DNA from: a virus
Lineage: Duplodnaviria; Caudoviricetes
DNA: 64,000 nt
IMG/VR virus record: IMGVR_UViG_3300013800_000006
Location: 11,926-75,925 of that record
Direction: 5' to 3' (one strand)
A program made the translations under genes and the position numbers. Every line of letters begins with the position of its first letter. Positions within the stretch are counted from its first letter, which is position 1. The notes below the pieces were generated by a model, which was not told where the DNA came from, ran no database searches, and was given only the letters and a program-made list of their open reading frames with translations. This document shows positions 9,601 through 64,000 of the stretch, in pieces.

Positions 9601-10708
9601 TTTCTTTAAGACTGGTCTCAGCACTTCGTAGAACTTGTAGTTCTTGCCCAAGTCTATTAACTGCTGTGATTTGACCCGTGAGTGAATTAGTACCATCTAT
9701 CAAATATTTATCAACAATTTCCAATACTTTTTGCAAAGTATATAAATTGTTTACAGATTCACGAGTTCCAGAATTAAAAAGTTTTCCAAACGACGAACTA
9801 TCAGTGGTCAGTCTTTCAAAAATTGGCGCAAGATGATTTAAACCTTTTAATAATGAATCTAAAGCAGCCGTATCGCTACCAAAAGCTTGCTTTAATGAAG
9901 TTTCCCACTGTGTTGTATCATAGGTTAATAATTTAACAACTCGACCAATTGCCGCAAATGATTCTTCGATAACTCCTAATCGATCTTGTTGTAAATCTTT
10001 TAACTCTAATGGCTGTATTGTGATCTTAGCATATTGACTAGCACTTTTAAAAATATCAGTCACAATACTAGTCAATTGGCGTTGCGCGTTTTCTGCCCTT
10101 AACTCAGTAAACGGAACAACAATTGCATCATTAATTGCATCTTTAAAAGGCTGCTTGCGACGACTGACAGCAGCCTTAGCCGCTTCCAATACCGCACCAA
10201 TTTGGGCATCAATAATCGCCGGATCAAGACCATTAATAATGCTATCTTTAACATTTCGCAATGCAGCAACAAGTGTATCAAATACAGGTACTGATTTACC
10301 TCTAGAAGCAGTTGCTAGTGTTGATCCAACTTCAAGTAACGCTTTATCGATAACTTCTACATTAAGAATAGTAGTTTGAGATGCATCCGATAACGATTTA
10401 GCGTACTGCTGTGTCCAATTGCTAATACCATTTTGCAATTGGACAAAATAGTCTTTAATTTCCGGGGTAGATTTTCCAACTTGTCCAGCTAAATTGGAAA
10501 TACTTTTGGCAGCAAGATTGGCTTGCTCAATCAGTTTATCACCGCCAATTCCGGCTTCTACTGATTTTCGCAAGCCATCTAAAACCTTCTGAATCGAGCT
10601 AGCAACTGCTGCGAATGCAGAACTAGTACTAGAAAGATTAGTAGCTTGAGCACTAAGATTGATTAAGACATCAACGACTGTTTGTTTTACATCAGCCATT
10701 ATCTCCAA
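605..10708 (-). CDS. Tail tape measure protein (TP901-type core), 3367 aa
   Basis: Ala/Leu/Gln-rich helical giant ORF after the tail chaperones. TP901-like core (GSTTRYGAEQAADGFKQLALAGY...LHNAGLRGSLAGTALR), central hydrophobic stretch, and C-terminal FATGG...DTVPAMLTPGEYVV motif. Confidence 0.93.
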   Translation of the reverse strand: MEIMADVKQTVVDVLINLSAQATNLSSTSSAFAAVASSIQKVLDGLRKSVEAGIGGDKLIEQANLAAKSISNLAGQVGKSTPEIKDYFVQLQNGISNWTQQYAKSLSDASQTTILNVEVIDKALLEVGSTLATASRGKSVPVFDTLVAALRNVKDSIINGLDPAIIDAQIGAVLEAAKAAVSRRKQPFKDAINDAIVVPFTELRAENAQRQLTSIVTDIFKSASQYAKITIQPLELKDLQQDRLGVIEESFAAIGRVVKLLTYDTTQWETSLKQAFGSDTAALDSLLKGLNHLAPIFERLTTDSSSFGKLFNSGTRESVNNLYTLQKVLEIVDKYLIDGTNSLTGQITAVNRLGQELQVLRSAETSLKEIDTALVSETTKVNRLAVAVQGLNNVFATAGKQPETFGGFSKTETTAKLLEQSLEQLTLKLKGLYDLSKREDGSQVFGSQLSLELSAAQSRVLQLSRQFQNLNSEIAKIRTDHIDASLVQTAKATETFEKLVVDGLVRVRSGILSLGESKLTNPIATSLSHLLNGLKDPIKLVNDLTKIYTKFVTTVKGNIATVSINGVKESFSDFSSLIKIVQDYVNTIYSVEKANLDAASATGKVSKSQTQAVQSWQETVTKLNDLTDTIIRNGKEVSNQSIIYKTWVTSVQTGFQEALDAQDRFIKSTSSVNTSVATIVKEFDIFDEVLNRNSKIIDSAIKKFSDLARTGAELPKQLKGISVSDIKVNSLQDLIDGLNRLKQSVSDSKNNLIGFASSAKLVDTEYRRLAESIGSAQIPTSGIEAAKQYEAEIIKISGAFKQAATAATDFSSLQNVYSDYKKNLQSVYDAIQSVIEAERRMSSSPVNLSALEAVRKQVTEQTAAINVGLQKGGASLDILLQQTGRLQELKNQFTQLNAAVQSSEQSLSRLGQSGVSSDTLKEIKTETSRLIAERQSLIAEVANARNRLDSAMQTAIRTVGTGGDLTQLQQAAKAADEAFNLLGQDVKNIPATVETLGTKVKELETAVAPVIRLNEAIQQAEKSLQGTASATSNFGTSFDFAIRTLVDDLIKAGTQIGLMRTNFETKPREVLQSFMDDLRIKADELSRSYIEITKSIHLAESAAQAGFSINTASLEAARNRAESLRIELERTREASATLRETINRSSPSSTVLKGYGDIASSMHEADDKAAFLSKGLRSLFTLMLNQNASKLAGSLGEVQNKTDLVASAVRKLENDLVGSMRNMEMMTMGLQMLGQAMIEPFQKGLEAFSKLEDTLTFIRGATGETEASIENLGKTTETIGSTTRYGAEQAADGFKQLALAGYDVEQQITALPTVLQLATAAETNLGSATNTVVQLMSSQRLAVEDVGKASDILSMAAIRTTATLEDMGTSFKYVGSIAGTMQNDITDTAAAVALLHNAGLRGSLAGTALRGSFQALLNPTKEESRVMEELSRRIGGAGLQITDSKGKFVGFVSLLQQFEEAGVQTNEVLELFGQRAGPGMAALLQIGSDKLKELESDLSGAEGSTARLAAMMEKTFAGRMQILSNSLGVLGESIGHSLSMALKPVVEIATAFVSKILVIREALGPLTPIIDNLVAGFAVLVLGIGTVALAWSMMLVPAAKFGAILQTLWVVLTKTASALLVVRDAQIAAALSGQALAISQAETWAAAVKAGSGLAGFVAVLRALSLALVTTPIGLFITALTTLAGVTFYLVQNMTTVNAELDRQAAIAVNSTKEFENLGKKIATVGVSLQAINNQNVKLDTSKLLNLSSVQEQTTKFKKLLDEVVTRYNESSDQVKKGLNLEKTFDTLTGQVTGLKVITAETGQVLTTFSTEMLSSKTVANDLAQSVSVLNNAVATYANKDAAIAAEEKFINKLREHLRVVQDTSYTSRASSQKELSDTQAYYAQLLQLKQMYVAAEAALDVAKNSNDEDAIQQARENLQKVESSIFNVVPTKFDFSTLIETLDSELQNSFAKTESIKQKAAIFSKTVSSIITDAIASIKVAHGVVDTDSVMKQIEKDLDQANTPYWLRGWMPSFMQGIFTLNSADKSALLAKVRESLQSTMEQVKTEANKVSAEVTLSNQFSAMQRLVAQMIKTSDTQVSELTTRMEDLKKVMQIYKDNADAFIKYRDLIANASKAKMDVGISAIQQQTEFALTQIKATYSTTAALGDSTFSTLSGAAIGWGKNVKAVNKDVFTTFASYQGEQKKIANDTASQMYSYYHNSLERQIDDLTRATSSVTENVYTIPVRLEAEYSGFNTSINGAVKYGSDAIRYFVADAKKETGVFLQYSITFDQKLFDSKVRLENEKTKIITSGLNKEKTEIAAHYNSILPLYKIGSADRIKVEQEFATKRRDLDLKGIQSVQSALDRVKELYKSNADKIKKIEEDKQSFISRANAKRDELENSGLNDAQKLAKQKLQIQQLTDQASLESTAGNLDKAKALYEQAMSKIEGLSLEPWDQQSKQFVTDSLNTVEKGMGNVSDRLKLAGDAQQTTLEKTAKGLEDMLAGFSNDLSNVEKDLKDLATSLIQLQKDNAKSIDLKFDDGNAIAKLSAIAEKKLELDRMFEKPLSIGLNTDQALADMEKIQNQQIGLEKARDQSSRNKQDAESAQKQLDSVNQLKAAYTELSKLTNSISTNQLPEGVTVGTTLKDVTKDGSDGQKQLEAITQALSGYEKGLNELMDTYSKADLSIPKQFYDELDKVRKARDSLSIDSKGGVLIDKSVGDVLEVDIDRLTKMREILGNLDTTKIDGMVNSFNTVGVKLTEIAAKADPLRDLRIGVSGTKGQAPTQALVETRKVLEEVAPALKELTGSSDQVTDALKRTGDAAQITTSDIKDVKSVAEQPIKTIDVSLQTNADTIVKEVQQAGPAIQSAMQNTIEPVTIPTTVQQPDFGTTVQQIAESSKELPTVEVKTDVAPLNLQTDVAALQNVQKELANLSALQDKANAAKIDLFTPDQLQRMDTVSNYIDGLLASTNNNQLTLKVNQESISNVISTLNDVRQQSGKVFDNFGKGLGGSQIQAQLDQLVKTRDDLSNKGPLTDIVDIGNFNKTTNGIMALTEAFKQYDTTKKSAADVPVISVGAEQTLTTVSDKLTEFQNHLADVRKQEFGFYINPDVETKLKDLQDQVTQFQTDATAGVHIDSSVLDQFKQKITDFANSLDGTPVQFDFSSLNTAYSKVEELKSLLSTTPTTVPVKTEDSAVTQTIDYLKQLVGYDKKTVNIDVITNLVNHNQSMNKLGGYNKGGLVEVLQAFARGGLAQIRRFATGGSTILSKLRGSIVPGSGNEDTVPAMLTPGEYVVRKSMVERYGLQFLNSLNSGLLQFRAFGGAIEGFPNLALAGMNQYLTPNLNTGSVDSSGLVDVRLHIGNKVVNMKSPRDEIKTLVAAAKQLER

Positions 10709-11466: not shown

Positions 11467-12447
11467 TCAAGCATCAAACACTTTCAAATCCAGATACGGG
11501 CTATCTGGATGAGCTGTAGCATCGCGAAGAATATCCGCTTGGAACTTCATATTGGCCCAGTCATCGCTAATCAGGCCCGTATCACCATTGGGAGCGACCT
11601 GACATTTCCACGCTTCCAATTCATAGTTTCCACCTTCCGGGTTGTCCGATACAAATCGCAGTTTACCAGACACGCTCAAAGCAGTCAAACCTTTAATACG
11701 TGTGTAAGTAGTTGCTGCACAACCAAAAGTGACAGTCAAGCTGCCCGTAATGGTGGACGCGTCCGTAATATAAAAACGGCCCGTCCGTGCATCTACGATG
11801 TAATCTGTAGTTGCTGTGTAGGTCGTAGATCCTGACTTCGCAATTACCAAACCCGAAACAGCAGTGGGCAAGTTGGTTAAAGGAGCCGATGCCGTACTTG
11901 TCCCACCGGTAATAGTTTCTGCAGCGGTGAAAGTTCCCGATAGAACAGAAACTAACAAGTAACCAGTCCCAACCGCCAAAACTTTAGCAGTTGCGGTACT
12001 CGTGCCACCTGTAATCGTTTCATTAGCTTGGAATGGACCACCGGTTACTGTTCCAATAGTAACACGCTTCGTTTGAATAGATAGTTTACCCAACTCATAA
12101 TACCGACCTACTTCTGGAGAAGCGATTGTCACTGACACTTCATCAGCAGCAGCCTGAGCCACATCTTCAGATGTACCATAGACCAGCATTTTCCAGTTTT
12201 CAGACTCAAATTCTTCCAAAGTGAAACTTAACTGAGGAGCAATTTGCGATACCGCTGACTTATCTTTAGACTTCAAACCAGACATTGAACTAAAATGATC
12301 CAAGCGGGTCACGTTAGCTGTAAGCGAAACTTCAGTCGCATTTCCAAGATGACGCTCACCTTTATAAGAACTAGTTAGTTCATCAAAAGGCGCCCAGTAC
12401 AAGCTACCACGACCCAAGACATAGTTTTCAACATTTGGAGTAGACAT
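11467..12447 (-). CDS. Major tail (tube) protein
   Basis: 326 aa. N-terminal NYVLGRGSLYW...RHLGNATEVSL motif typical of siphovirus tube proteins; position before the chaperones. Confidence 0.8.
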   Translation of the reverse strand: MSTPNVENYVLGRGSLYWAPFDELTSSYKGERHLGNATEVSLTANVTRLDHFSSMSGLKSKDKSAVSQIAPQLSFTLEEFESENWKMLVYGTSEDVAQAAADEVSVTIASPEVGRYYELGKLSIQTKRVTIGTVTGGPFQANETITGGTSTATAKVLAVGTGYLLVSVLSGTFTAAETITGGTSTASAPLTNLPTAVSGLVIAKSGSTTYTATTDYIVDARTGRFYITDASTITGSLTVTFGCAATTYTRIKGLTALSVSGKLRFVSDNPEGGNYELEAWKCQVAPNGDTGLISDDWANMKFQADILRDATAHPDSPYLDLKVFDA

Positions 12448-22312: not shown

Positions 22313-25300
22313 CTAACGAATAGGGCACATACCACCGGCACACTCAGCCGATTCAACATCAAAATCATCTAAAACTTTTTCCATATCAATAGGTTGAAGT
22401 GTGTTTGCATACGCTTCAAATACTTCTTGAGTTACAACTTCTTGCGGTAAATAAGGATACCCCAAATCTTCCGCAGTTTTAGTAGGGTCATTTCGTAACA
22501 TAAATGTTGCCGAAACATAACAATCCCAGTTTTTGTGTATCCAATCTACAATTGAACCAATCTCTCCAGGGCTGTATGACACAGTGCTTGAAACATTATG
22601 ATCTATATAATGTTCCATGACCATTTTGTATCGTTCCAATTGTGCAACTGCCGATTCCAAATTAAGAAACCGACTACCAACTTCTGAAAATTCCACATTC
22701 GCAAACTGAACAGGGAATGTAACCAAGATACCGGTAGCATCATACGGATTAATGAAAGTCCGATAACCAGCATCTTGCAACAGTTTAACCACCGGGTCAT
22801 GAATAGAATAATTAATATTATTCAAAATATAACGACCCAGTGGCTTATGTATACCTTCTGTACAATCCGCCAACTTAGACAAAGTACCAGAAGGTTTTGT
22901 AGTTGTTACCGCAGCCGGGTGTTCCATATCCAATCCATCGGCCATACTATTGGCACCATTCCTAGCACATTGATGTAAAACATCAAATGCAGCAGGCTCA
23001 TTGGCAAACTCCCATTGTACAATCCCTGTCAAACCTACTCCACATAAATGTAAATACTCATTCAATTCATGCCATGTTCTTTGTAAAAGACCATCATCCA
23101 AATTGACACAAGACTGACGATAATTTGCACGCGCAATAAGGTATACTGCCCGTTTTAATCCTTCCATATTTCCATTAAATCTCGGTAACACAACCTCACA
23201 CAAATTGCACTGATAAGTCAGCATATTATTAAATACTGCTTTATGCTGAATAGGCTCTTCAAAACAATAAGAAGTATATTCACCTTCCAATGGATAAATA
23301 CGTTTAATGTTTTGATATTTTCCTTTACCAATAGGTGCATGACCCAACTTGGTATTCAATCGTTGGCAAGGTAATTCCGATACATCAGTAATAGAAACGT
23401 ACCAAGATGCTTTAGTACGCTTAAAATTAGATGATTGTCCAACATCCGCCATCAAACATACCGAAGATCGTATGCCATTTTTAGATAACAGTAATTGCAG
23501 CTTACGGATAAAAACTTCATCCGATTGGTAAATACGAATCCCACCAGATTCCGTATTAGAACCGTCACTATCAGCTAAACCGGCTATAAATGCCAGGCAA
23601 GAAGTACGGTCCCATAAAAACACTTCATCAATTGTGGGTAATTTTGTATCTTTTAGCACTACTTTTCGTTGGGGAACATCAGGGTTTTGTCTGTATTGAC
23701 CTTGATATTGAACTCCCCGTAAAGACAGTCCAACTTTTCGTCCATACAATAAGATCACCACATCATCCTTTTCTTCATAACCGTCACCATAACCAAACCC
23801 TAACTCATAAGCCAATTCGACATAAACTCCAGAGTCATTCACCATTTTAAAAGGTTCTGAATGAACCGCATACTTACCAGGATGCTCCATAACAGTCTTA
23901 GCCATTACTTCATGATAATGGTCACTAAATCGTGTTGTAACAGATAATCGATGGTAAGGAGTGCAATCTAAATAACTACCATCAGATAATTCTATTCTCA
24001 ACATTTGCTGATGGTAGCCTGTAATTTGTGGAACAACAACGGCCCACTGCTGCCCATTCCAAACTTCTACTTCCTCACCAACAACATCCGAAATCTTAAC
24101 CAATGCTTCACGAGTAATAAGCCATGTATCACCATGTACACAGAAACCTTTATCACCCAACAAGATTTCACCACAATTTCCAGACACAACCGAACCTAAT
24201 AAAAATGATTGCGTAGTCGGTACACCAGCACAAAACACTGGTTCTATACGATCAGTCAGTTCAACCCGAACAACTCGTAACACTTCCATTTTGTTATACG
24301 GTTGTCTTTTCAATAACTGTGGTTCAAGATACTGCAACAATTTATTGGGGTTGGATATAGTAAATCGATACACATCTTTAGTAGGATATGCTTTATACCC
24401 ACCCTTACCATCCGGCATTTCCTTTTCTCCTGCTGGATGGGTCAAACTGATTTTCCCACGAACACCAATAAGCCTGCATAACTGAGCAAACTCATTCAAA
24501 AATGTCCGATGAATAGATGTAAACTGAATGAGATAACCACGTTCAGCATCTCCACTAAAATGACCATCAGATTCAAGATAGCCACGAATAAATGCTAAAA
24601 TGGTTGGCAAAGTACCACCTAATACGTAATCAGGCACTTTGGACTTATCGGGAACAGCATGACCTAAAATTCTACCAACTACCAGATTTTCTGACCGTTG
24701 GGAAAACTTTAAACCAACTCTTGTAAGTTCTTCAATACATTCCCGTTTCTTAGTATTCAAATTAATTCCAATTTTGGAATTCTCTTTTGAATTATACCAA
24801 GTACCATCTGCAATCAACCATGCATCCAGATAAGCATTATCTGGATCATGAACACTACCAAAACACCCTTCAATGAAAGATGGAGCTAATTGATCATCAA
24901 GTTGCAATTCACCAACTGTAATAAACGATCCATCAATCTTTACAAATCGATGGTACTTAGTTGCATACTCAACCATACCATTACTAAACTCCACTTCATA
25001 TAATGCCTCAGCATCTCCAGTTTTTTCAAACTTGGCTAAAACAACATCACCAGAACCATCTATCACGTCTGCCCATGTACCACTCAATGAGCCGATTCGT
25101 ACAAGACCTTTATCTGGAATACACACCAATGAATCTTTCGCTAAACATGGGTTCATACCATAGAAGTATGGCGCTCTACGCAATGCAGCATCACCGTTCA
25201 CAATTCCGGGTTCACTGCCCCCACCATCTAACATCAAATCGAACACTTCAAATAATTGACTTTTTGAAGGTTTATCATAAAACACCAAAGAATTATTAGA

Positions 25301-25942
25301 TTGACCTCGTTGTGGGTTTAATTGTTGATGATCACGTTTAGCTAATGCAAATTCCCGCCAGTACTTATTAGAATTAGGCATTAGTGCCAATTCAGCAGAT
25401 CGACGAGATGATAAAATAGTCCCCATCCAATTGACAATATCTAAAATGTCCAATTCAGATAACAAACGACCTGCTGCTCTGTTCATGATAGTGCAAATCC
25501 CTTGCAAAGCAATATATAATTGATGATCTCCGCTACTAATCCAACCATAACCTCGTAATCGCTCACCGGCTGGACGTATTTGAGATAAATCAATAATTAG
25601 CTTTTCAGCAGGATGCTTACCCGAAATAAGCTTACCCACTGCTTTCGCCCAAGCTTCAGCACTATCGCCTACTTGCAAAATCCAAGTTTTACTCGCTGAC
25701 AACCATGTTTCCGTATTACGTTCTGCACCACCTTTCTGTGTTCTAGTAGAACGTATAATTTCTATATGAGGGATATGTCGCATAAAGCCATTCAATATCC
25801 CTATAATAGGTCGAAATCCAACTCCACAGTTATGAACAACGACTTTAGATTCACCAACAGTATAAGTATGAGTCTTTTCTACAGACAAATCATATAAAGA
25901 CTCAGAACTTTGTGGTAAACGCTCAACACTTTTTACTTTCAC
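22313..25942 (-). CDS. nrdJ: Class II (B12-dependent, monomeric type) ribonucleotide reductase, C-terminal part, with IntC and two inteins
   Basis: After intein removal reads CGVGFRP...NP/CGEILLGDKGF/CNLCEV...TTTKPSGT...CAGGMCPIR (catalytic NPCxE and C-terminal Cys pair). Confidence 0.9.
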   Translation of the reverse strand: MKVKSVERLPQSSESLYDLSVEKTHTYTVGESKVVVHNCGVGFRPIIGILNGFMRHIPHIEIIRSTRTQKGGAERNTETWLSASKTWILQVGDSAEAWAKAVGKLISGKHPAEKLIIDLSQIRPAGERLRGYGWISSGDHQLYIALQGICTIMNRAAGRLLSELDILDIVNWMGTILSSRRSAELALMPNSNKYWREFALAKRDHQQLNPQRGQSNNSLVFYDKPSKSQLFEVFDLMLDGGGSEPGIVNGDAALRRAPYFYGMNPCLAKDSLVCIPDKGLVRIGSLSGTWADVIDGSGDVVLAKFEKTGDAEALYEVEFSNGMVEYATKYHRFVKIDGSFITVGELQLDDQLAPSFIEGCFGSVHDPDNAYLDAWLIADGTWYNSKENSKIGINLNTKKRECIEELTRVGLKFSQRSENLVVGRILGHAVPDKSKVPDYVLGGTLPTILAFIRGYLESDGHFSGDAERGYLIQFTSIHRTFLNEFAQLCRLIGVRGKISLTHPAGEKEMPDGKGGYKAYPTKDVYRFTISNPNKLLQYLEPQLLKRQPYNKMEVLRVVRVELTDRIEPVFCAGVPTTQSFLLGSVVSGNCGEILLGDKGFCVHGDTWLITREALVKISDVVGEEVEVWNGQQWAVVVPQITGYHQQMLRIELSDGSYLDCTPYHRLSVTTRFSDHYHEVMAKTVMEHPGKYAVHSEPFKMVNDSGVYVELAYELGFGYGDGYEEKDDVVILLYGRKVGLSLRGVQYQGQYRQNPDVPQRKVVLKDTKLPTIDEVFLWDRTSCLAFIAGLADSDGSNTESGGIRIYQSDEVFIRKLQLLLSKNGIRSSVCLMADVGQSSNFKRTKASWYVSITDVSELPCQRLNTKLGHAPIGKGKYQNIKRIYPLEGEYTSYCFEEPIQHKAVFNNMLTYQCNLCEVVLPRFNGNMEGLKRAVYLIARANYRQSCVNLDDGLLQRTWHELNEYLHLCGVGLTGIVQWEFANEPAAFDVLHQCARNGANSMADGLDMEHPAAVTTTKPSGTLSKLADCTEGIHKPLGRYILNNINYSIHDPVVKLLQDAGYRTFINPYDATGILVTFPVQFANVEFSEVGSRFLNLESAVAQLERYKMVMEHYIDHNVSSTVSYSPGEIGSIVDWIHKNWDCYVSATFMLRNDPTKTAEDLGYPYLPQEVVTQEVFEAYANTLQPIDMEKVLDDFDVESAECAGGMCPIR
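23210..24142 (-). mobile_element. Intein 3 of NrdJ (311 aa, LAGLIDADG endonuclease, C-terminal Gln)
   Basis: KGF|CVHGDTWL...CTPYH...ELGFGYGDG...IAGLADSDG...NNMLTYQ|CNLC. Confidence 0.88.
24176..25147 (-). mobile_element. Intein 2 of NrdJ (324 aa, LAGLIDADG endonuclease, ends Gly-Asn)
   Basis: MNP|CLAKDSLV...ATKYH...AWLIADG...IRGYLESDG...VVSGN|CGEI. Confidence 0.88.
25829..25942 (-). mobile_element. Split intein C-half (38 aa) of NrdJ
   Basis: MKVKSVERL...LYDLSVEKTHTYTV...VVVHN|CGVGF at the N-terminus of the ORF. Confidence 0.9.
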
Positions 25943-26371
25943 GATAAATCCTCACAGCTAGTTCTCTAAAAGAATCTTGGGTAATATCACATTCCCAAAC
26001 TCGATAACCTAATGAGACTAAACGTTTTAATCGTCCATCATCTTCTCGCCACTTGGATTTGGCTAACCACCTTGTTACTGGATATTTATATGATTCTTCA
26101 TAAAATTTTGGATTCATGTGCCAAAAATCACCAAAAATCTCAATAACAACATTTAACTCTTTAATAAAACCATCTACTATAAAACTATGTAACATAGTTT
26201 TTTTACGTTTTTCTTTTGTTTCAGAACGTAAAGCAGATAACCTACATGCTTGTTTATGGACATCAGTTTTGGCTTCCGCATGGCATCTTTATGAGCTTGC
26301 GATTGAAAAGTAAGAAAAAATCGCAAGCTCATCAATAGCTTATGTTCCGCAGTGCGAACATAACTACCCAT
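25923..26371 (-). pseudogene. Free-standing Vsr/DUF559-like endonuclease between the NrdJ halves, frameshifted
   Basis: Track ORFs 26177..26371 and 25923..26195 join by a -1 shift near AAGCCAAAAC. This gives ...RSETKEKRKKTML (NUMOD-like) followed by FIVDGF...VIEIFGDFWH...D.RL.RLVSLGYRVWECD. Confidence 0.7.
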
Positions 26372-26999
26372 CCACTAATTCCTTATCATCCAAAAATTGT
26401 GCTTCACACCAACCTTCAGTGGTTAAAAACAAATGATCTTCAGTACAAATAATTGTTTCCCCGTTTTCCAGAGTAATTTTAACTAAAGATTTTGGTGGAT
26501 TAACTATAACAGCTTGTACCTCCGAATGAATAAAACTTTTAGTGAGTTCATCAAAAGATACAACTAAATCACCTGCTTCTAGTAACTCAATAGGCTTAAA
26601 AGAACCATCTGCCATCCCAACTAACGTGCCTTTTACAAAACATCCTTGTAGCAAGAGCCAGAGTGCATCCACAGCATCAAATACTGTTTTAACCGATGTA
26701 AAGCTGCAATTAAAATTGCAGCTTTCTCGTGTTCGGGCTACTTCAGTACCCCCCAACCACAAAGAACGACCTGAAGGAAATGCAGCTCGATTTAAAATTA
26801 ATTCTCGTAACTCAGCTAGTTCGGCTAGTTCTTCATTACTCAAATTCATCCCTTTAGCCCGTTCCCATAACCAAGCTTGGTGCCTGAGCACCCGTGCAAC
26901 TGTTTGAGGCCATGTTTCAAACTCAGTCGCCATTTCATTTAAAGGACGACTGTAACTACGCCGATAAACCAATTGTGAGCGTGTAGACCATTCATTCAT
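26364..26999 (-). CDS. nrdJ: Class II ribonucleotide reductase N-terminal part plus split intein N-half
   Basis: YRRSYSR...TWPQTVARV...FPSGRSLW...FNCSF...WLLLQG followed by intein sequence and a stop codon. Confidence 0.9.
   Translation of the reverse strand: MNEWSTRSQLVYRRSYSRPLNEMATEFETWPQTVARVLRHQAWLWERAKGMNLSNEELAELAELRELILNRAAFPSGRSLWLGGTEVARTRESCNFNCSFTSVKTVFDAVDALWLLLQGCFVKGTLVGMADGSFKPIELLEAGDLVVSFDELTKSFIHSEVQAVIVNPPKSLVKITLENGETIICTEDHLFLTTEGWCEAQFLDDKELVDG
26367..26642 (-). mobile_element. Split intein N-half (92 aa) of NrdJ
   Basis: LLQG|CFVKGTLVGMADG...ICTEDHLFLT...LDDKELVDG stop. Blocks A and B present, no F/G. Confidence 0.9.
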
Positions 27000-37582: not shown

Positions 37583-37698
37583 GTGACATCGCTTTAAACG
37601 CCCCAAATCGGCGATTTTAGCCACCCATCCCATAACCCACTACCCAACCATGGGTAGTGGGTTTAAATGTCACCACGGCCCGTTTTGGTGGCTTAAAA
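37583..37698 (+). repeat. Second intergenic repeat family, copy A
   Basis: GTGACATCGCTTTAAACGCCCCAAATCGGCGATTTTAGCC...CACCACGGCCCGTTTTGGTGGCTTAAAA, with an internal 13-bp stem AACCCACTACCCA/TGGGTAGTGGGTT. Confidence 0.8.
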
Positions 37699-56592: not shown

Positions 56593-57014
56593 TGGACAAT
56601 GCAAGCTTACTACGCGAACATGGAATTAACATCTTAACTGGTGAAGCGGATAAGTATGGCCTTCGTGTGCTTTGTGACATTAATTCGGACGGATTAGATG
56701 TACTTGCCGAATACTTCGGCTTCGTTCCAAAATGTCCAAAAAATTGGAACTCAGAAGTGAATGGACAGCCCGCTATTGGCTCTTTCATGCTGCCACGCGA
56801 CGCCATTCCAAATCTAGTTAAGTTTATCTGGTTTCATTACCGGAATGCATTTGCGCTGATTGAGATGTGGAACGGTTATGTAGCGATGACCAGTGACCAA
56901 GCTGATGAATATTCCAGACTCAACATTGACGTAGTTCGCAACTGCAATTACCGACCTAATAATAGGATCGGTAGTAGTCGCAACACTCACGCTATGAGTA
57001 ACAGATTAACTTAA
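56592..57014 (+). CDS. Hypothetical phage protein
   Basis: 140 aa, GINILTGEA...RVLCD. Confidence 0.65.
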   Translation: MDNASLLREHGINILTGEADKYGLRVLCDINSDGLDVLAEYFGFVPKCPKNWNSEVNGQPAIGSFMLPRDAIPNLVKFIWFHYRNAFALIEMWNGYVAMTSDQADEYSRLNIDVVRNCNYRPNNRIGSSRNTHAMSNRLT

Positions 57015-57052
57015 TTTCGGTCGGGTTTTACTCCCTTTGTCCTGACCAAACT

Positions 57053-57078
57053 AAAAGCGGCAGTAATGCCGCTTTTTT
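57053..57078. terminator. Bidirectional Rho-independent terminator
   Basis: AAAAGCGGCA-GTAA-TGCCGCTTTTTT at the convergence of the plus and minus blocks. Confidence 0.8.
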
Positions 57079-57141
57079 AATCTTGGTGACGCTCAGGATT
57101 AGGCGTAGTCATCATATTTTGCGGGAAAGTTAGATTCAAAA

Positions 57142-57351
57142 TTAGCGATTTTTAGCTTTTGGTCCTGGGGATAACGATTCAAACCTAAGTTGAGAATTAA
57201 TTGATTGTTGGGCTAAATATTGATCGGCTAACCACTGTAATGAACATCTTGCACGTACTAAAACACCAAACAACGGGTCATCTTTATGTGAAGATGTTAA
57301 GTTACCCAACTCGGTTAAACACTCTTGAACCACGTTTAAATTAGACATCAC
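57142..57351 (-). CDS. Hypothetical protein
   Basis: 69 aa, SD GAGG. Confidence 0.5.
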   Translation of the reverse strand: MMSNLNVVQECLTELGNLTSSHKDDPLFGVLVRARCSLQWLADQYLAQQSINSQLRFESLSPGPKAKNR

Positions 57352-57442
57352 AAACCTCGCTAATTAGGACTGACACACACCCAATCTTTCCTTAATTTAT
57401 ACCTTAGCTTGAATGGCAAAACTTCCAAAGGTAGCATGTATG

Positions 57443-57703
57443 TCAGTTCTGATTAGTCTCCAATAAAGCGCGTAACTGTTTACTATAATCTTGTAATTTA
57501 CGCTGATTCAAAACCAGTTTTCGATAAGTTGAATCTTTAACATAAGTCTTTGGTAATTCTTCAGATTTAACTGATTCCAATTTAGGTTCCGGTGGTATAA
57601 ATTCTTTTGGCACAACAACATATCGATACTCTACTACTAATCCCGATGGTGCAGTAGAACATCCCACTAAACCCACCAAAAAGAGTACCAATAAAATTCT
57701 CAT
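57443..57703 (-). CDS. Lipoprotein, o-spanin-like
   Basis: Lipobox LVGLVG|C with Ser-Thr at +2/+3 and a Pro-rich segment. Confidence 0.6.
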   Translation of the reverse strand: MRILLVLFLVGLVGCSTAPSGLVVEYRYVVVPKEFIPPEPKLESVKSEELPKTYVKDSTYRKLVLNQRKLQDYSKQLRALLETNQN

Positions 57704-57966
57704 TACTCTAAATCCTTTCGATTTTCCACATCAATCGGTTGATTCACTTTTAAATTATTTTTACTCTCCACAGCCGTTTCTTTTAACTTCCGTAATTGTT
57801 CTTCAGCAGCCGCTTTGCTACGCAAATCATTATCCTTTAACCTATCTAATTCACGAGCCAATTTCTCTTTTCGGTACTGTAACCATACATTATAACCAGA
57901 ATTAAATAAAGATGCTATTGCACTCAATATAGAACTTAAAGCGCTCGTAATAGTAGACCAATTCAC
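57703..57966 (-). CDS. i-spanin-like protein
   Basis: N-terminal amphipathic/TM helix plus a charged coiled coil, directly before the lipoprotein. Confidence 0.5.
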   Translation of the reverse strand: MNWSTITSALSSILSAIASLFNSGYNVWLQYRKEKLARELDRLKDNDLRSKAAAEEQLRKLKETAVESKNNLKVNQPIDVENRKDLE

Positions 57967-58244
57967 TTAGACGCCTCATTAGCTTTAGTTTTAAGATACG
58001 GCCATTCATGACCTAACCAAATACCCGTTAAACCCGTAATTAACCCCGCTAAAATACCTTCAGCAGAGGCAAATTCCGTAACTGTCATTAACAAAGGCTT
58101 ATTCATAAAAAATGGGACACTAAACACTAACAACAATGCCAACATGCACAACCAAACCAATACAACAGACACCCCCACAAAAAACAAAGTGCGACTTTCT
58201 TGACCACGCGAGTTTTTCGGTTGAAACGCTTTTAACCAATTCAT
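57963..58244 (-). CDS. Holin-like membrane protein
   Basis: 93 aa, two hydrophobic helices, basic termini. Confidence 0.5.
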   Translation of the reverse strand: MNWLKAFQPKNSRGQESRTLFFVGVSVVLVWLCMLALLLVFSVPFFMNKPLLMTVTEFASAEGILAGLITGLTGIWLGHEWPYLKTKANEASK

Positions 58245-58372
58245 TATTAAATCTCCACATCATGTTATAGCGAATATACTTACCATATTTTATCTTAAAT
58301 TGCAAATCAGCCTAAATTATCATACTGACAACCGCCACCACCCACCCATCCAAACTAACCACTAAATCCTCA

Positions 58373-58487
58373 TTTTAAGCCACCAAAACGGGCCGTGGTG
58401 GCCCGCAAATTAAAATCGAGTAGCGGGGTAGCGGGTAAGCTAAAAACGGCCAAAATCGACGATTTGGGCCGTTTAAAGTGATGTCAC
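58373..58487 (-). repeat. Second intergenic repeat family, copy C (inverted relative to A)
   Basis: Reverse complement reads GTGACATCACTTTAAACGGCCCAAATCGTCGATTTTGGCC...CACCACGGCCCGTTTTGGTGGCTTAAAA. Confidence 0.8.
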
Positions 58488-58534
58488 ATTAATTATACAA
58501 CTCAAGTGCCAACTCTAATTAGAGTTTATAACTC

Positions 58535-58894
58535 TTAACTAACAGGTTTAGACGAAACATTACCATTTTCATCAAAGATCCATTGATATCTCGGTATTAA
58601 ACATCCTTCTGGAACAACCGAAAAACCCGGTGAAATTGCTTTATACTCAAACGCAGCTAAATCCCACAAATACTCACATCTCAAAATAATACACTGACTC
58701 ATCACCTTCATAACTGCTTTGGGCTGCTGTCTAACTAAAATATCGGTGATTAAAAATACCCCAAAACGCCTTGAGATATCTATCTCGTCGGGTTGCTTAT
58801 TCTTCTCAACCACATTAGCAAAATGCCGCACAGGAGTAGACTTACTCGGTTTCCAAGTCAAATTGAATAATTCTTCATCAGTCATCATAATCAC
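58535..58894 (-). CDS. Hypothetical protein
   Basis: RRFG...FEYKAISPGF...IPRY. Confidence 0.6.
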   Translation of the reverse strand: MIMMTDEELFNLTWKPSKSTPVRHFANVVEKNKQPDEIDISRRFGVFLITDILVRQQPKAVMKVMSQCIILRCEYLWDLAAFEYKAISPGFSVVPEGCLIPRYQWIFDENGNVSSKPVS

Positions 58895-58896
58895 CT

Positions 58897-59535
58897 TTAA
58901 AAATTGTAACCATGAGCTGTCACTTTATGTACCTCATGCGCTTCTCGCTTTAAAGAAGCGCCATCCTTCTGTTTCAAAATAATGGTCAACAACGACTTCG
59001 TATGCAGAGTAGTATATTCATTTCGGGAGTATAATTTTAATAATTGTAATGCACCTACAAACACACTTCGATAGAACCAAAATAACGAAAATTGATTGCT
59101 ACATTGTCGTAGTTCTGATCTGAATAATACTGAAATTTTTTTATACACTTGTACTAAAAGATCATGTAACGTGACATCGGATTCATCATCTATAAAAATC
59201 AATTTCAGGGCTGATACGGGTAAAAATTTTCTATCTTTTATAAAACGATCTTTCGTATGACATCCATCTTCTAACACCACTGACATTAAAGAAACATACA
59301 TAATCTGTGTTCGAGTCCCCGTTGCTAAACATTCCATCAACTCAGGTGTATTATTAGCACTACCATCCTCATAATCCACATTTTCATCTGGAAGCCACCT
59401 TTCTAACCGCTGTACTGCTCCTACTTCTGTCAAACTCAAATTATAAAGCACCACGGGTTTTTGCTCCTCAAATGCACACCAAGTTGGCTGGTTCATGATT
59501 CTATCTCGTTGGAAATAAACAAAATAATGGCACAA
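58897..59535 (-). CDS. Hypothetical protein
   Basis: 212 aa; the start may be later. Confidence 0.5.
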   Translation of the reverse strand: MCHYFVYFQRDRIMNQPTWCAFEEQKPVVLYNLSLTEVGAVQRLERWLPDENVDYEDGSANNTPELMECLATGTRTQIMYVSLMSVVLEDGCHTKDRFIKDRKFLPVSALKLIFIDDESDVTLHDLLVQVYKKISVLFRSELRQCSNQFSLFWFYRSVFVGALQLLKLYSRNEYTTLHTKSLLTIILKQKDGASLKREAHEVHKVTAHGYNF

Positions 59536-59590
59536 TCACCCACAATAGTCAAAAGGTGATTGTGCCATTCAGCACGACTAAGTATACCTG

Positions 59591-60451
59591 TTAATTCAGC
59601 ATTTCCAACATCGCTGCAATAGCCAATTCTGCGGCAATAGTCTTACCACTACTCGTTGCTGTACCCAACATCAAATTACAATCCGTCAAGTGTGCATGAC
59701 TTCGCACCACACCAGATTGCATTCGATTAAAATACGGAAACCGATAACCCAACTGAGGGTATGTTTCCGTACTCACCAAATCATCTTCATCTGCTATTTC
59801 ATAAACATTACCGGTCATTGCCACTTTAACCGGATGTTCTTCAGTCACATGCTCCAGTGATACCGTTAAAGGAGCACGAACTTTAAATGGATTTGGTAAT
59901 TCTTCAGTTTTGTCCAATTCAAATGGGTTATCCACTAAAGGATAACGATCATGCCGCAACACATTCACAGCTTGAAGATTTAAAGCAATCCGTGGCTTAC
60001 ATGCGGGAAACAATGAACATCCAAAAAAAGAACCACCATCCGATTTACGAGATCGTTCAACCAAATGTGATCCACACTTATCACAGAATCGTTTGGTCAT
60101 TTTCATTTCACGAGCAATAGCAACTAACTCTTTTGATCGCTCCGTACACCGATCAAAAGGTGTAGTATTACCTTCAACTCGTAACACCTTCCGTGCTGAA
60201 CCTACTGGGCTTCCCGAATGAGTATCGAACAACACAAACCGGATTGCATCTTCACCACAACCACGCGACAAATTATCTTCATCGACAGTCGTATAAACAT
60301 GCAATTCCAAACCATAAATCCCCGTCACTTTCTTAATAACGGCTTCCCGACCACGATTCGGTTTGGTCACAACATACTTATCTTTACCAAACGAGCCATC
60401 TGCCCACTGAATAAATTGATCCAAATGTAACGTAACAAATTCTTTGCTCAT
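59591..60451 (-). CDS. Zn-ribbon protein carrying the Q motif and Walker A of a Ski2-like helicase at its C-terminus
   Basis: CDKCGSHLV...FFGCSLFPAC (topoisomerase-type C4 ribbon), then FPYFNRMQS...TDCNLMLGTATSSGKTIAAELAI and stop. Own promoter TTGAAA-17-TAAAAT. Confidence 0.8.
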   Translation of the reverse strand: MSKEFVTLHLDQFIQWADGSFGKDKYVVTKPNRGREAVIKKVTGIYGLELHVYTTVDEDNLSRGCGEDAIRFVLFDTHSGSPVGSARKVLRVEGNTTPFDRCTERSKELVAIAREMKMTKRFCDKCGSHLVERSRKSDGGSFFGCSLFPACKPRIALNLQAVNVLRHDRYPLVDNPFELDKTEELPNPFKVRAPLTVSLEHVTEEHPVKVAMTGNVYEIADEDDLVSTETYPQLGYRFPYFNRMQSGVVRSHAHLTDCNLMLGTATSSGKTIAAELAIAAMLEMLN

Positions 60452-60511
60452 GTGCTTTTCCCCGCTGGTGACAGTATGATTTTATCACAAAATCATATTA
60501 CTTTCAACCAT

Positions 60512-60919
60512 TTATTTAAGATCATCCGAAAACAAAGCTTCCATTTGTTTAATCTTCCAATCCAACATCGCTTCCAACTTTGTCATATCTAAATCCAAAG
60601 AACTTCCATCCGAATTATTAATCGTTTTTTCATATTTAAGATCACTTGGACTAAATAGCTGACTAACTTCAAATGGTTCTAATCTAGTAAATGGTAGCAC
60701 TGAATCCAAATACTCAAATTGGTAATCTATTATCGTATCTTTAATCCAATATTTCTCACACCATTGTTGAATAGCGGATAAGCTATACTGATTAAGATGA
60801 ATTAACTCTTGACAATCTTCATGATTTAACACAATAATTCGACCTTTCAAAGAAGAAACATTATTGGTCACAATTAACAAACGATTGATATAATGCACAA
60901 CTTTCATATAACCTCCCAC
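60512..60919 (-). CDS. Hypothetical protein
   Basis: 135 aa between the helicase pieces. Confidence 0.5.
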   Translation of the reverse strand: MGGYMKVVHYINRLLIVTNNVSSLKGRIIVLNHEDCQELIHLNQYSLSAIQQWCEKYWIKDTIIDYQFEYLDSVLPFTRLEPFEVSQLFSPSDLKYEKTINNSDGSSLDLDMTKLEAMLDWKIKQMEALFSDDLK

Positions 60920-62043
60920 TACGCCACAACGTTATCCGATTCAACAAAATCACGAGCGGAGTCAAGAACGCCATTACCCACAGTGTTACCTAACACTTTA
61001 CGCACGATACCAGGACTACCCAACACAGCACTAATGGACGTAATACCTACATCATAAAGCTTCTTAGCCCGTACTGCACCAACCCCAGGTATTTGACATA
61101 GCATTGCCAGTTCCATTGGAACACCATATTTCAGCCGCAACGCAAGAATTTGCACCATATTCAAATTAGCAACCCGCTTAATTCCCGCAATCCAAGATAG
61201 TGCTCCCACAACCCGATCAATATCTTGCTGAATGGCTCGTGCCGCTGGCGATGGTTTTTCACCTTTCAATACGTCAACCAAATCAGCAAATAAAGAACTT
61301 CCAACGGCTGAATACGGCCAAACTTTAATCAATTGCTGCTTTGCAGTAATCACTCGCATTTCATCTTTACGGGGGATATATGGAAGGCGTACCGTTGGGG
61401 CGGCCAACAAATACGCAATAGCATAATCATTATGCCAAAGATTATGCTGATCGATCACGGACAAACCAATCGCCCAGTGAAACACATCTTTTGGATGATA
61501 ATATAATGTTGCCGCTACAATCCCCAACGGAGTACAAGATAGCTTACCATTATCATCCATCTTAATAGCACCCCACATTGCCAATTTATTCATAACACCT
61601 TCAACCATAGCTGGTGTTAAAGGGCGCTGAATCACGGACAACGTGCGATTGTACCAATCATGCATAGATTCAACATCGGTAATAACTTTGTTACGAATCT
61701 CAGCACACAAATGGAATGACAACGTATCTTCATCCAGTAATGTAGATTCAACATTACGTGGATTATTAATTCGCACTTCCCAATCTTTTGGCGAATCGCA
61801 AATAAAATAAACATGACCTTCTGGTGCTTTACCAAACCGACCCGCACGACCTGCTGCTTGAATAATGTCTAACTCATCAATGGGGTCAAGACCACGAGTA
61901 TTCCCCACAATAATGACATTTTGCGCTGAGGTGTTACAGTTATGCACTAAACAACCATTCACCACAAAATTATGATTCTTATCAACTGTAATATCAAAAA
62001 ACTTACCCGTCACTTTTCGCTTGACAATAGATTTAATTTTCAT
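60919..62043 (-). CDS. Ski2/Hel308-like helicase C-terminal part with split intein C-half
   Basis: IntC, then CNTSAQNVII, motif VI IIQAAGRAGRFG, winged-helix region and HhH LCQIPGVGAVRAKKL. Confidence 0.88.
   Translation of the reverse strand: MKIKSIVKRKVTGKFFDITVDKNHNFVVNGCLVHNCNTSAQNVIIVGNTRGLDPIDELDIIQAAGRAGRFGKAPEGHVYFICDSPKDWEVRINNPRNVESTLLDEDTLSFHLCAEIRNKVITDVESMHDWYNRTLSVIQRPLTPAMVEGVMNKLAMWGAIKMDDNGKLSCTPLGIVAATLYYHPKDVFHWAIGLSVIDQHNLWHNDYAIAYLLAAPTVRLPYIPRKDEMRVITAKQQLIKVWPYSAVGSSLFADLVDVLKGEKPSPAARAIQQDIDRVVGALSWIAGIKRVANLNMVQILALRLKYGVPMELAMLCQIPGVGAVRAKKLYDVGITSISAVLGSPGIVRKVLGNTVGNGVLDSARDFVESDNVVA
61939..62043 (-). mobile_element. Split intein C-half (35 aa) of the helicase
   Basis: MKIKSIVKRKVTGKFFDITVDKNHNFVVNGCLVHN|C. 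Confidence 0.9.
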
Positions 62044-62101
62044 AAACCACCCCAGTTGATTTAAACAATACTATTATACACTATATACATTATAAAATCC
62101 A

Positions 62102-62857
62102 TTAAGCCTCAATATTCAATATAGTCAAAATCCCTAATAATTCTTCTTGAACTTTAATGAATTTCCTAGCAGAGCGTGAATTAAATCTAATACGAAATAA
62201 TCTCCAGCTTAAATTATTTAAGCCTTTATTTTTCCTAATATCACGTTCCATAACACTTTCTTTATCATGAATCTCACTATCTAATTCAATACCAATTTTT
62301 TTATCTGGTAATGCAAAATCAATATAAAAGAATCGCTTTCTCGATTCATTAGACACAACTGGAAAATTAACCATGAACCCATAAGGCTTTAATATATTAA
62401 ACACAAAAGTTTCCATTGAGGATAGTTGTTTATATCTACCTAATTTTATAAACGGGTTTAATCTATTGCTAAAATTATCTAAATCATTCATCTGCTTTAA
62501 TTTACTACCTTCAGCATATCTTTTTTTCATAGTATCTGAAATCTTTTTAATAACAATATCAGATTGTTTAGGTCTTTTTTTAAAAGATTCACACATACGA
62601 GCTTTATTATCAGGATCACTCCAAAATTTCTTTGCACGTTGTCTGTACTTAGTCAATACACCTTCTTTTTGGACATAAGCTTTCATAGTAGACCGTGCCA
62701 CATCCTTCTTAGCTTTACAAACAAGAGGAGTATTAGGAAATTGCAATCGATATTGAGCCATAGTCAAATTATGGCTCTTAACATGACCGGTGCCGATTTG
62801 TTTATACTCTTTACCACAAATCTGACAAACCACAAAACTATCAGTATCTTTATACAT
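62102..62857 (-). CDS. Free-standing DUF559/Vsr-like endonuclease between the helicase halves
   Basis: N-terminal CQIC..H...H, basic helical repeats, and FYIDFA...IGIELD..IH....ERD..K...L...W..FRI. Start placed at ATG 62857 behind GGGAG. Confidence 0.8.
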   Translation of the reverse strand: MYKDTDSFVVCQICGKEYKQIGTGHVKSHNLTMAQYRLQFPNTPLVCKAKKDVARSTMKAYVQKEGVLTKYRQRAKKFWSDPDNKARMCESFKKRPKQSDIVIKKISDTMKKRYAEGSKLKQMNDLDNFSNRLNPFIKLGRYKQLSSMETFVFNILKPYGFMVNFPVVSNESRKRFFYIDFALPDKKIGIELDSEIHDKESVMERDIRKNKGLNNLSWRLFRIRFNSRSARKFIKVQEELLGILTILNIEA

Positions 62858-62909
62858 AACAAACTCCCATAATAGCATCATGCTATTATGGGAGTACAAC
62901 ATCCCAAAA

Positions 62910-63965
62910 TCAAGAAAAATATTTAATATCGTCTCCAACCATCAAATGATCTGCACGCTTGTTAATTAACTCATCATCCTCAATCACATAAATAGGATGT
63001 GATGGCCCAGCAATTAATTCAGTACCATCTTCCAACTCAATTACATACTCATATTCTTCATTACACAACTCTACATGTAGAACCTCATTAAACTCATAAC
63101 AATATAATGTTTCATTAAATGATAAAATCTTCATTCCAGGTTTTAATGAACCATATCGATAAACACCAAAAACAGTATGCACCAATGAATCTTCATGTAG
63201 ACTACCCCACGCCAAGGCGGGTGTTGAAATCAATGCATTTAATTCAGGTGTTTCAAACCGCTGGAGAATATCACGTCGGTCCCCATACTCTAAATCGGCA
63301 TTATAAAACGAATTATTAATATTTTCGTCTTGTAGCAATTTAGATAACATTCGTCCAGTATTCTTATCCCACACAAACACCAAATACTTTTCATCGGGTT
63401 TAGATTGCATAATTTGCAAAGCATTAACCATCTTACTCATTTGATTTTCTTGATACGATCCAAAAATCTCATGTTGAAGATAATGCCATACCAAAGTTGT
63501 CGGACGCCATGAGGAATTCAAAACGTGCGTAGGTTTACCGTTCAAATGCGTCAGCCATGTAGAAAACTGATCTGCATTTGGAGCAGTGGCCGATAATAAC
63601 CAAACCTTTGCAGCCGGATTGATACTCGTGAACCGCATAATTGCGGATTCCACACAATCCCCACGACCTTGTGACGCAATAATATGACACTCATCTACAA
63701 TAACCAAACCCACCCGATAAATCCAGGCGTAATGCTCACTCCCATGATTTCTAGTTAATGAATCCAACAATTCCGATGTGCACAACACAATATGAGCATT
63801 CTCACACTCCCGCATTTTTTGTTGGCGGATTTTTTGTGAGGTAAGTGTATCACCCGTCAACATCACAATATTTTTATCACGAAATACACCTTTTGACCAT
63901 TCATCAAACTTTTCAGAACTCAATGCTTTTAATGGTGCCGTGTATACACAGATCGGATTTTCCAC
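62910..63965 (-). CDS. Ski2/Hel308-like helicase middle part (motifs Ia-V) with split intein N-half
   Basis: YTAPLKALSSEK, IVDECH, LSAT, STPALAWG; no Walker A. GTG start with SD GGGAG and an in-frame stop at 63989-63987. Confidence 0.88.
   Translation of the reverse strand: MENPICVYTAPLKALSSEKFDEWSKGVFRDKNIVMLTGDTLTSQKIRQQKMRECENAHIVLCTSELLDSLTRNHGSEHYAWIYRVGLVIVDECHIIASQGRGDCVESAIMRFTSINPAAKVWLLSATAPNADQFSTWLTHLNGKPTHVLNSSWRPTTLVWHYLQHEIFGSYQENQMSKMVNALQIMQSKPDEKYLVFVWDKNTGRMLSKLLQDENINNSFYNADLEYGDRRDILQRFETPELNALISTPALAWGSLHEDSLVHTVFGVYRYGSLKPGMKILSFNETLYCYEFNEVLHVELCNEEYEYVIELEDGTELIAGPSHPIYVIEDDELINKRADHLMVGDDIKYFS
62913..63203 (-). mobile_element. Split intein N-half (97 aa, Ser1) of the helicase
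   Basis: LAWG|SLHEDSLVHT...IELEDGTELIAGPSHPIY...ADHLMVGDDI stop. Confidence 0.85.
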
Positions 63966-64000
63966 GTTATGACTCCCGCGTTGTAATTATATACATTATA

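Follow-up and report, generated by a model that had tools for sequence, protein, structure and literature searches.

Herein, a predicted helicase of the Hel308/Ski2 type that is distributed over three separate genes of a tailed phage is described. The genes lie at the right end of a 64,000-nucleotide (nt) stretch of DNA (the window), which is the right-hand 64 kb of one 75,925-nt metagenomic contig (IMG/VR record IMGVR_UViG_3300013800_000006, positions 11,926 to 75,925) from a phage that is tailed, with a portal and an HK97-type capsid encoded. The three genes, termed pieces B, C, and A in the order of transcription, probably derive from one helicase gene that was cut by homing endonucleases at two sites, with piece A complementing in trans and the gene order permuted later. 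This reading is built on the gene anatomy, the tiling of the pieces, their single copy, the intein boundaries, and the conservation and recurrence of the break between A and B, which were observed directly. As read from the sequence, the damage in motif V is healed by a split intein, and the loop after the Walker A motif is without a healing element. With no healing element at this loop, the two products on either side of it would have to complement each other.

The gene order in the open reading frame (ORF) listing is B, a Vsr-like endonuclease, C, a small ORF, and A (63965 -> 59591, minus strand). The pieces and their parts are the following.

63965-62910, minus strand: piece B, an ORF of 351 amino acids (aa) with a GTG start
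63204..63965, minus strand: N-extein of B, residues 1-254, with motif Ia, DECH, SAT, the remainder of RecA1, and RecA2 as far as motif V (..ALAWG)
62043-60919, minus strand: piece C, a 374-aa ORF
60919..61938, minus strand: C-extein, 339 aa from Cys+1, with the remainder of motif V, then motif VI (QAAGRAGR) and the winged helix, ratchet, and helix-hairpin-helix (HhH) domains
60451-59591, minus strand: piece A, a 286-aa ORF
60451-60098, minus strand: alpha/beta N-terminal domain of A, residues 1-118, from an AlphaFold2 (AF2) model
60088-59993, minus strand: Top1-type zinc ribbon of A, residues 122-153 (Zn_ribbon_Top1 in Pfam)
Minus strand: disordered linker of A, residues ~182-210, from the AF2 model
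59740-59594, minus strand: Q motif, strand beta1, Walker A, and helix alpha1 of A, residues 238-286, followed by the stop codon

The GTG start of piece B at 63965 is preceded by GGGAG 8 nt upstream and by an in-frame TAA 21 nt upstream; the Shine-Dalgarno sequence and the upstream stop that the initial annotation had assigned to B were thereby both located. The protein opens at motif Ia (..VYTAPLKAL). The Pfam DEAD profile was matched in B at positions 45-165 of 167, and Helicase_C was also matched. Since the DEAD match begins at profile position 45, the Walker A part is absent from B. The DECH of B is Walker B/motif II, and the SAT is motif III. Piece C gave weak Pfam matches to HHH_5 and DNA_pol_lambd_f. 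Piece A carries the Q motif FNRMQS and the Walker A motif TSSGKT and ends 15 residues past GKT; its AF2 model has a predicted local distance difference test (pLDDT) score of 83, with a confident N-terminal domain.

The tiling was determined by comparing the fused 866-aa relative P0010 with the 75.9-kb contig via tblastn. Residues 3-277 of the relative were covered by A, 274-533 by B, and 523-864 by C, so that A stops where B begins, as had been claimed. Each piece is present in a single copy, and no further Walker A piece was found on the whole contig in this search. The exteins add up to 879 aa, compared with 857-910 aa in fused relatives. The ORF coordinates and the tiling bear out the earlier description of a helicase in three pieces and in permuted order.

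The Ski2/Hel308-like identity that had been proposed for the pieces agrees with the motif content. All superfamily 2 (SF2) motifs were found in the order of Hel308, with Q and Walker A in A, Ia (TAPLKAL), DECH, and SAT in B, and QAAGRAGR in C. Residues 203-583 of P0152, an intein-less B-C body, matched Hel308 9b15_A (283-676) at an E-value of 5e-36 and 2p6r at 2e-33; this match of ~380 residues covers RecA2, the winged helix, the ratchet, and the HhH, and ASCC3, SLH1, and Brr2 were the next best. Judged from these motifs and matches, A, B, and C together are one Hel308/Ski2-type DNA helicase of about 879 aa, of which the unwinding activity is predicted only. The phage protein differs from the Hel308/Ski2-like proteins in the addition of the N-terminal alpha/beta domain and the Top1-type zinc ribbon, in being spread over three genes, and in belonging to a phage-borne family without a characterised member.

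The break between B and C lies in motif V and contains the following features.

62910..63203, minus strand: N-half of the intein, 97 aa, beginning with Ser1 (SLHEDS..) and followed by the stop of the B ORF; Pfam Intein_splicing at 295-347, below the gathering score
62863..62895, minus strand: perfect 15-base-pair (bp) hairpin just upstream of the endonuclease gene, found by scan; RNAfold -25 kcal/mol
62102..62857, minus strand: free-standing homing endonuclease, 251 aa, with its ATG at 62857 (Pfam, PHROG 559, and a gene call in Logan contigs)
61939..62043, minus strand: C-half of the intein, 35 aa, ending in ..LVHN and followed by Cys+1; Pfam Intein_splicing at 2-35, profile positions 122-155 of 155, below the gathering score

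The intein boundaries were set by comparison with intein-less DNA. The intein-less P0152, from the related locus L005, reads ALAWG-CNTSAQNV across the site. A contig of sequencing run X3 joins 61938 to 63204, with exactly 1265 nt missing, which are the N-half, the endonuclease, and the C-half. The depth of this intein-less contig is 15, versus 8 for the intein-bearing contig, and a second, less exact joint over the same region was found in both X3 and X6. These joints indicate that an intein-less allele co-circulates. Because P0152 and the 1265-nt-deleted allele set both boundaries, the intein extends from Ser255 of B to Asn35 of C. The boundaries are therefore proven by both an intein-less homologue and the intein-less allele, the latter from an independent sludge sample. 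The split intein first noticed in B and C is confirmed by the two Pfam halves, the P0152 junction, and the deletion allele; the trans-splicing itself is predicted.

In the endonuclease, a ROS/MucR-type zinc finger is combined with a Vsr-like (MTES_1575/DUF559) nuclease domain, and the Vsr-like endonuclease family was described in Dassa et al. 2009 (PMC2677866). The 3' arm of the hairpin includes the GGGAG ribosome site of the endonuclease. Leader hairpins of such kind are known from fractured-gene endonucleases and from mobE/I-TevI (PMC2677866, PMC2988022). The B-endonuclease-C segment, with its 97-aa N-half, leader hairpin, 35-aa C-half ending in HN, and Cys+1, is a full fit to the fractured genes of Dassa, London, Stoddard, and Pietrokovski 2009 (PMC2677866), in which a free-standing Vsr-like or GIY-YIG endonuclease lies between split intein halves and the host is likewise a phage DNA-metabolism gene. 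It differs in that a Hel308-like host with a motif V site is absent from the eight host types listed there, in that Ser is the first intein residue in the phage helicase, and in that the phage helicase has a second, intein-free break.

This second break separates A from B. In fused relatives, GKT is followed by about 13 residues and then by G-K-V-x-Y-x-S-P-L-K; A provides GKT plus 15 residues, and B starts four residues ahead of the motif Ia strand V-Y-T-A-P-L-K. The surplus of A plus B over the fused relatives is at most 3-4 residues, so no intein half fits. An intein at this junction was ruled out since there is no spare sequence, in agreement with the initial annotation, which had seen no intein residues there. 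Relative to an unsplit homologue, A and B abut, each with its own start and stop, and with no intein or intron. In the window, no endonuclease is found at the boundary of A or of B, and A lies downstream of C, neither adjacent to nor colinear with B.

Relatives were collected by an exhaustive profile-free homologue search with A as the query. A total of 455 homologues of A were found, both fused and split, and many of them are fused helicases of 805-1296 aa. Ten A-like representatives (P0002-P0006, P0009, P0043, P0054, P0062, and P0104) end 13-18 residues after GKT. The N-terminal domain with the zinc ribbon is also widespread as stand-alone proteins of ~150 aa. The gene orders at the loci with a split A are listed below, with the identity to A.

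P0003 locus, 52%: a fused B-C gene (595 aa), four small ORFs, and A
L005, 47%: a fused B-C gene (L005:1795-3579, 594 aa, starting at motif Ia), a 58-aa ORF, and A (L005:3766-4659); the ORFs after A are homologous to those of the window
L006, 37%: A, a 5-kb interval with other genes, an HNH gene directly next to B, and C, which shares the split intein
L010, 43%: A and B with three small ORFs between them, then eight small ORFs, and C
P0062 locus, 27%: A and, after a 397-aa DUF7487 endonuclease-like gene, the helicase body
L011, L012, and L013, 24-38%: A, then directly endonuclease-type ORFs (CxCGCG and NUMOD3 motifs), where the contigs end

Every split A with a known context has a helicase body without Walker A in the same locus. 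Other lineages carry an HNH/NUMOD3 endonuclease gene in the gap between A and B. The order of B-C before A, first noticed in the window, is shared by the P0003 locus and L005 in conserved synteny, and the genes downstream of A are homologous to those of the window. When GenBank phages were searched via tblastn, A had no match, and B matched only unsplit helicases at no more than 34% identity; the helicase of Microcystis phage Mvi-JY20, one such match, is unsplit and without the N-terminal domain. Scans of IMG/VR with A and with B gave no relatives.

Phylogenetic analysis of the A region was performed on 32 rows via a quick IQ-TREE run. The A of the window falls in a six-row clade in which all rows are split, with a Shimodaira-Hasegawa-like approximate likelihood ratio test (SH-aLRT) value of 99 and with protein clusters at 37-97% identity. 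Within it, a four-row subclade (SH-aLRT 95) includes the three lineages with B/C before A; its fourth row is P0002, for which no locus was fetched. The two sister rows of this subclade are colinear. Elsewhere in the tree, three more split forms each have fused forms as sisters. Four changes of state between split and fused are needed on this tree, and three of them are forced by well-supported branches. The topology indicates that the break is old in the lineage of the window and that the loop has been broken repeatedly. By this tree, the loop between A and B was split independently at least 3-4 times.

Two other arrangements were observed in the family. A third break site is present in L015:7968-10969 (Pseudoalteromonas umbrosa) and L016, with the proteins P0008, P0011, and P0014. 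In these, A and B are fused, the gene ends just past motif VI (GRAGR) with a tail of ~95 aa starting [AS]-[LY]-P-P-x-Y, and the helicase continues in a second ORF, after a ~33-aa head, from the strand that would normally come after motif VI. Neither of the two additions resembles an intein half, and both could be docking elements. In addition, L014:99-323 (P0043) encodes a 74-aa 'mini-A' consisting of the Q motif, Walker A, and the next helix only, without the N-terminal domain or the zinc ribbon and with the same loop end; the contig is too short to include a helicase body.

The conservation of the catalytic residues was compared between split and fused forms. Over 28 A-region sequences, invariance is confined to the columns F241, N242, Q245, D257, N259, T266, S267, G269, and K270, which belong to the Q motif, strand beta1, and the P-loop. 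The residues without variation in 21 B-region sequences include D91, E92, S125, A126, and T127. The Q motif, Walker A, DExH, and SAT are thus invariant in split and fused forms alike, and the break is conserved together with these motifs in relatives at 37-52% identity.

Complex prediction was applied to residues 1-168 of B with residues 205-286 of A. Scores of 0.86, 0.87, and 0.86 (ipSAE) were obtained, versus 0.00 for the best of three controls; of 80 solved complexes, 58 attained the mark used for this score, as did 2 of 110 mismatched pairs. At least 86% of the contacts were in common between the runs, and the pLDDT of the partner was at least 84. In the model, strand 259-262 of A is inserted between strands 120-124 and 144-148 of B, helix 277-281 of A packs against residues 6, 59, and 87-89 of B, and the P-loop region contacts residues 86-91 of B. 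The model is that of a canonical RecA1 fold rebuilt in trans from A and B. The model, with its controls, favors docking, for which complex prediction had been proposed at the outset; its score may reflect the memory of the model, because intact SF2 helicases are solved. The non-covalently bound Walker A subunit suggested at the outset is backed by the conserved break, the recurrent splits, and the complex model, and the binding is predicted only.

Several sites in this gene family have been hit by homing endonucleases. The following origin and working are proposed. The ancestral helicase gene would have been cut by homing endonucleases at two sites. The first site would be the loop that connects the helix following Walker A to the strand of motif Ia; in the clade of the window, the cut would have the same endonuclease origin as in the other lineages, with the endonuclease gene lost afterwards. 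In the subclade of the window, a rearrangement would have moved A downstream of B and C, for which tandem duplication followed by deletion would be the simplest route; traces of such an event were neither sought nor found. The second site would be motif V, with the Ser1 split intein and the Vsr-like endonuclease gene between its halves. B and C would be translated apart and then ligated by protein trans-splicing. A would be translated from its own start, and its last ~50-75 residues would fold into the incomplete RecA1 of B, providing the Q motif, strand beta1, the P-loop, and helix alpha1. The composite ATP site would then be formed by Lys270 from A and the DECH box from B, and the complex of A with the spliced B-C chain would be held by fragment complementation alone.

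Several other explanations were weighed against this origin. The contig is metagenomic and ends near B, and the order B-C-A might for these reasons be an assembly artefact. The B-endonuclease-C-ORF-A arrangement is, however, found at 100% identity over 6-13 kb in two Logan assemblies, which may derive from the source samples; a 1061-nt contig from an independent study bridges the 3' end of C, the small ORF, and the 5' part of A; and two diverged relatives carry the same order. Runs X13 and X17 gave only 35-nt fragments at <90% identity and were uninformative. Misassembly, which had been raised at the outset as a danger to the reading, is thus unlikely, and a misjoin is given next to no chance of being the explanation. 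The window ends with the contig, 35 nt upstream of B. The start of the contig interrupts a tail-fibre-like ORF, and terminal repeat or circular closure was not found at the contig ends, so a wrap-around search upstream of B is impossible. Another Walker A piece in the unassembled genome could then be the partner of B, with A as a left-over of a tandem duplication; duplication and deletion is the textbook route to a permuted order, and the 'mini-A' demonstrates that small P-loop pieces can be separate genes. As the contig stops so close to B, the region beyond position 64000 was inspected on another assembly and on syntenic relatives. The Logan contig L002 (SRR1106873) extends 665 nt upstream of B and contains an intrinsic terminator, TATAAT boxes/promoters, and then an unrelated small ORF. 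In L005, which has the same order and synteny, none of six small ORFs over 1.8 kb upstream of B has a GK[ST]/P-loop, and the five small ORFs upstream in the P0003 locus are without DEAD matches. A complete helicase N-terminus just beyond the window, which had been feared, was accordingly not found in the 665 nt of L002 or the 1.8 kb of L005. Every catalytic residue is also kept in A, and a second Walker A piece is considered very unlikely. Low-complexity sequence rich in TATAAT, ~35 nt upstream of B, is where both the genome contig and a second Logan contig break.

Hidden covalent joining of A to B, by RNA trans-splicing, programmed DNA rearrangement, or an unrecognised protein ligation, is highly improbable. 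Nothing direct favors it, and its only attraction would be the general rarity of central beta-strands that are provided in trans. A ends at a stop of its own, and B begins at its own start codon, with a Shine-Dalgarno sequence and an upstream in-frame stop, as in all relatives examined; there are no residues to spare for an intein; no group I/II intron, trans-splicing RNA, or other Rfam match was found in 57000-64000 at E up to 1; and the X3 and X6 contigs, from independent studies, contain no A-B joint, the intein deletions being their only joints. Alternatively, A could be an independent DNA-binding protein with a vestigial P-loop tail, and B-C an ATPase-dead scaffold or a decaying gene. The stand-alone ~150-aa homologues indicate that the N-terminal domain and the zinc ribbon can function without a helicase, and A and B are neither adjacent nor colinear in the window. 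Against such decay, the Q motif, Walker A, DExH, and SAT are invariant in split members down to 26-37% identity, which is unexpected for vestiges, a body without Walker A accompanies every split A of known context, and an intein with an intact splice junction is retained in B/C. Decay is therefore judged rather improbable.

Some points still weigh against the proposed three-gene helicase. A-B binding, B-C splicing, and ATPase activity are predicted only, from sequence and models. The complex score means that the pieces look like two parts of one RecA fold, and binding is not implied by it. The cut between beta1/alpha1 and the rest of RecA1 puts a central strand in trans and demands co-folding, and no precedent for this was found among experimentally characterised helicases. 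No cultured relatives came from the GenBank phage or IMG/VR searches. The contig is incomplete, and a further piece may lie elsewhere in the unassembled genome. The region L002:1-285 is the GC-rich 3' end of a TnpB/IS605-OrfB-like gene (zinc-ribbon motif), which meets AT-rich phage-like sequence ~380 nt upstream of B; this may be an insertion sequence (IS) in a phage variant or a sign of a chimeric contig.

The initial annotation had also suggested that separate control of A could switch the helicase on. A promoter-like match was found before A.

60479..60507, minus strand: TTGAAA-17-TAAAAT with an upstream TG, 28 nt before the ATG of A, by consensus only

The match overlaps an 8-bp inverted repeat (ATGATTTT..AAAATCAT). 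In the scan for promoters and terminators, the total matches were not above those in shuffles, so this site is only a lead. In L005, A follows the fused B-C gene after ~190 nt in a tight co-directional array, and this packing suggests co-expression rather than a switch. The switch is thus not supported either way. That A is a separately dosed or timed licensing subunit, with B-C inert until A is made from its own promoter or becomes available, is held to be unlikely. If true, it would provide a post-translational on-switch for a potentially toxic helicase, and the repeated fixation of the break would reflect selection and not only the site preference of endonucleases.

The genes around A were compared with those of the relatives.

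60512..60907, minus strand: small ORF of 131 aa between C and A, of no family
58897..59496, minus strand: 199-aa ORF downstream of A, with a counterpart after A in L005 at 44.6% identity

Neither PHROGs nor Pfam gave a match for the small ORF that separates C from A or for the ORFs that follow A. The 131-aa ORF is not kept in the relatives, where a 58-aa ORF or four other small ORFs are found instead. By its homology, the 199-aa ORF marks a conserved context of the permuted order. For the N-terminal domain of A, Foldseek found nothing in the PDB at E <= 0.001. The best hit of a wide VIA-align comparison had a Z of 6.2 (root-mean-square deviation 4.0, 102 aligned), which is within the chance range; the candidates, unrelated alpha+beta sandwiches (YbjN-like, type III chaperone-like, and UEV/RWD-like), were rejected on this ground.

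Other features of the phage were noted. Near-identical DNA is present in activated-sludge and wastewater metagenomes from several studies. The gene for the B12-dependent ribonucleotide reductase, nrdJ (window 22313-26999, minus strand), is likewise fractured, with a Hint/intein N-half at the end of a 211-aa ORF, and an intein C-half at the start of a 1209-aa ORF that also has a LAGLIDADG intein inside. The genome is unusually rich in inteins, endonucleases, and selfish elements. One ORF of 3367 aa (window 605-10708, minus strand) is very large for a phage of ~76 kb or more. An exact 28-nt inverted copy (CACCACGGCCCGTTTTGGTGGCTTAAAA / reverse complement) is found at 58373-58400 and 37671-37698, both intergenic; it includes a GC-rich hairpin (CACCACGGCCCG..) and may be a bidirectional terminator or a repeat element. 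At window 57443-58244 (minus strand), three overlapping small ORFs of 93, 87, and 86 aa resemble a holin/spanin-type lysis cassette, with a membrane helix in one ORF and a lipoprotein signal (..LVGCS) in another; the cassette is syntenic with L005 5608-6544.

Genes in pieces are known from T4-like phages, including nrdA of Aeh1 (mobE), gene 39/60 of T4 (mobA), and 43A/43B of Aeromonas phages 25 and 44RR, with reassembly of the two polypeptides into a working enzyme demonstrated for NrdA and gp43 (PMC2988022). The phage helicase resembles these (PMC2988022) in that the cut falls on a conserved, functionally critical site of a conserved enzyme gene and leaves parts with separate starts and stops, in that an HNH endonuclease gene lies in the gap in its relatives, and in that the cut is healed by neither an intein nor an intron. 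It differs in its host, an SF2 Hel308-type helicase, in which the cut falls within the RecA1 core, after the P-loop helix and before the strand that follows it. In the subclade of the window, this break is without an endonuclease gene, and the pieces lie apart and in reversed order; the loop was hit at least three times independently; and reassembly, shown for NrdA and gp43, is predicted only for the phage helicase. A literature search found no description of this split helicase, in line with the initial annotation, which knew of no helicase with both mechanisms and permutation; the absence from the literature searched is no proof of novelty. Each mechanism is already known, and what is new is the presence of both in one helicase, the cut in the RecA core, the recurrent break, and the permuted order.

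The phage protein would be a natural SF2 helicase with an ATP site formed from two polypeptides, cut within the RecA core and long kept in this state. Intein trans-splicing and plain fragment complementation, the two ways in which phages come through damage by homing endonucleases, would be present in one protein, and the gene order would be free to change once the gene is split. The loop was hit at least three times, which points to the DNA of the Walker A and motif Ia codons as an endonuclease hot spot and to the loop as a permissive split site. Such a permissive split site would be directly useful for engineering split, conditionally assembled helicases.

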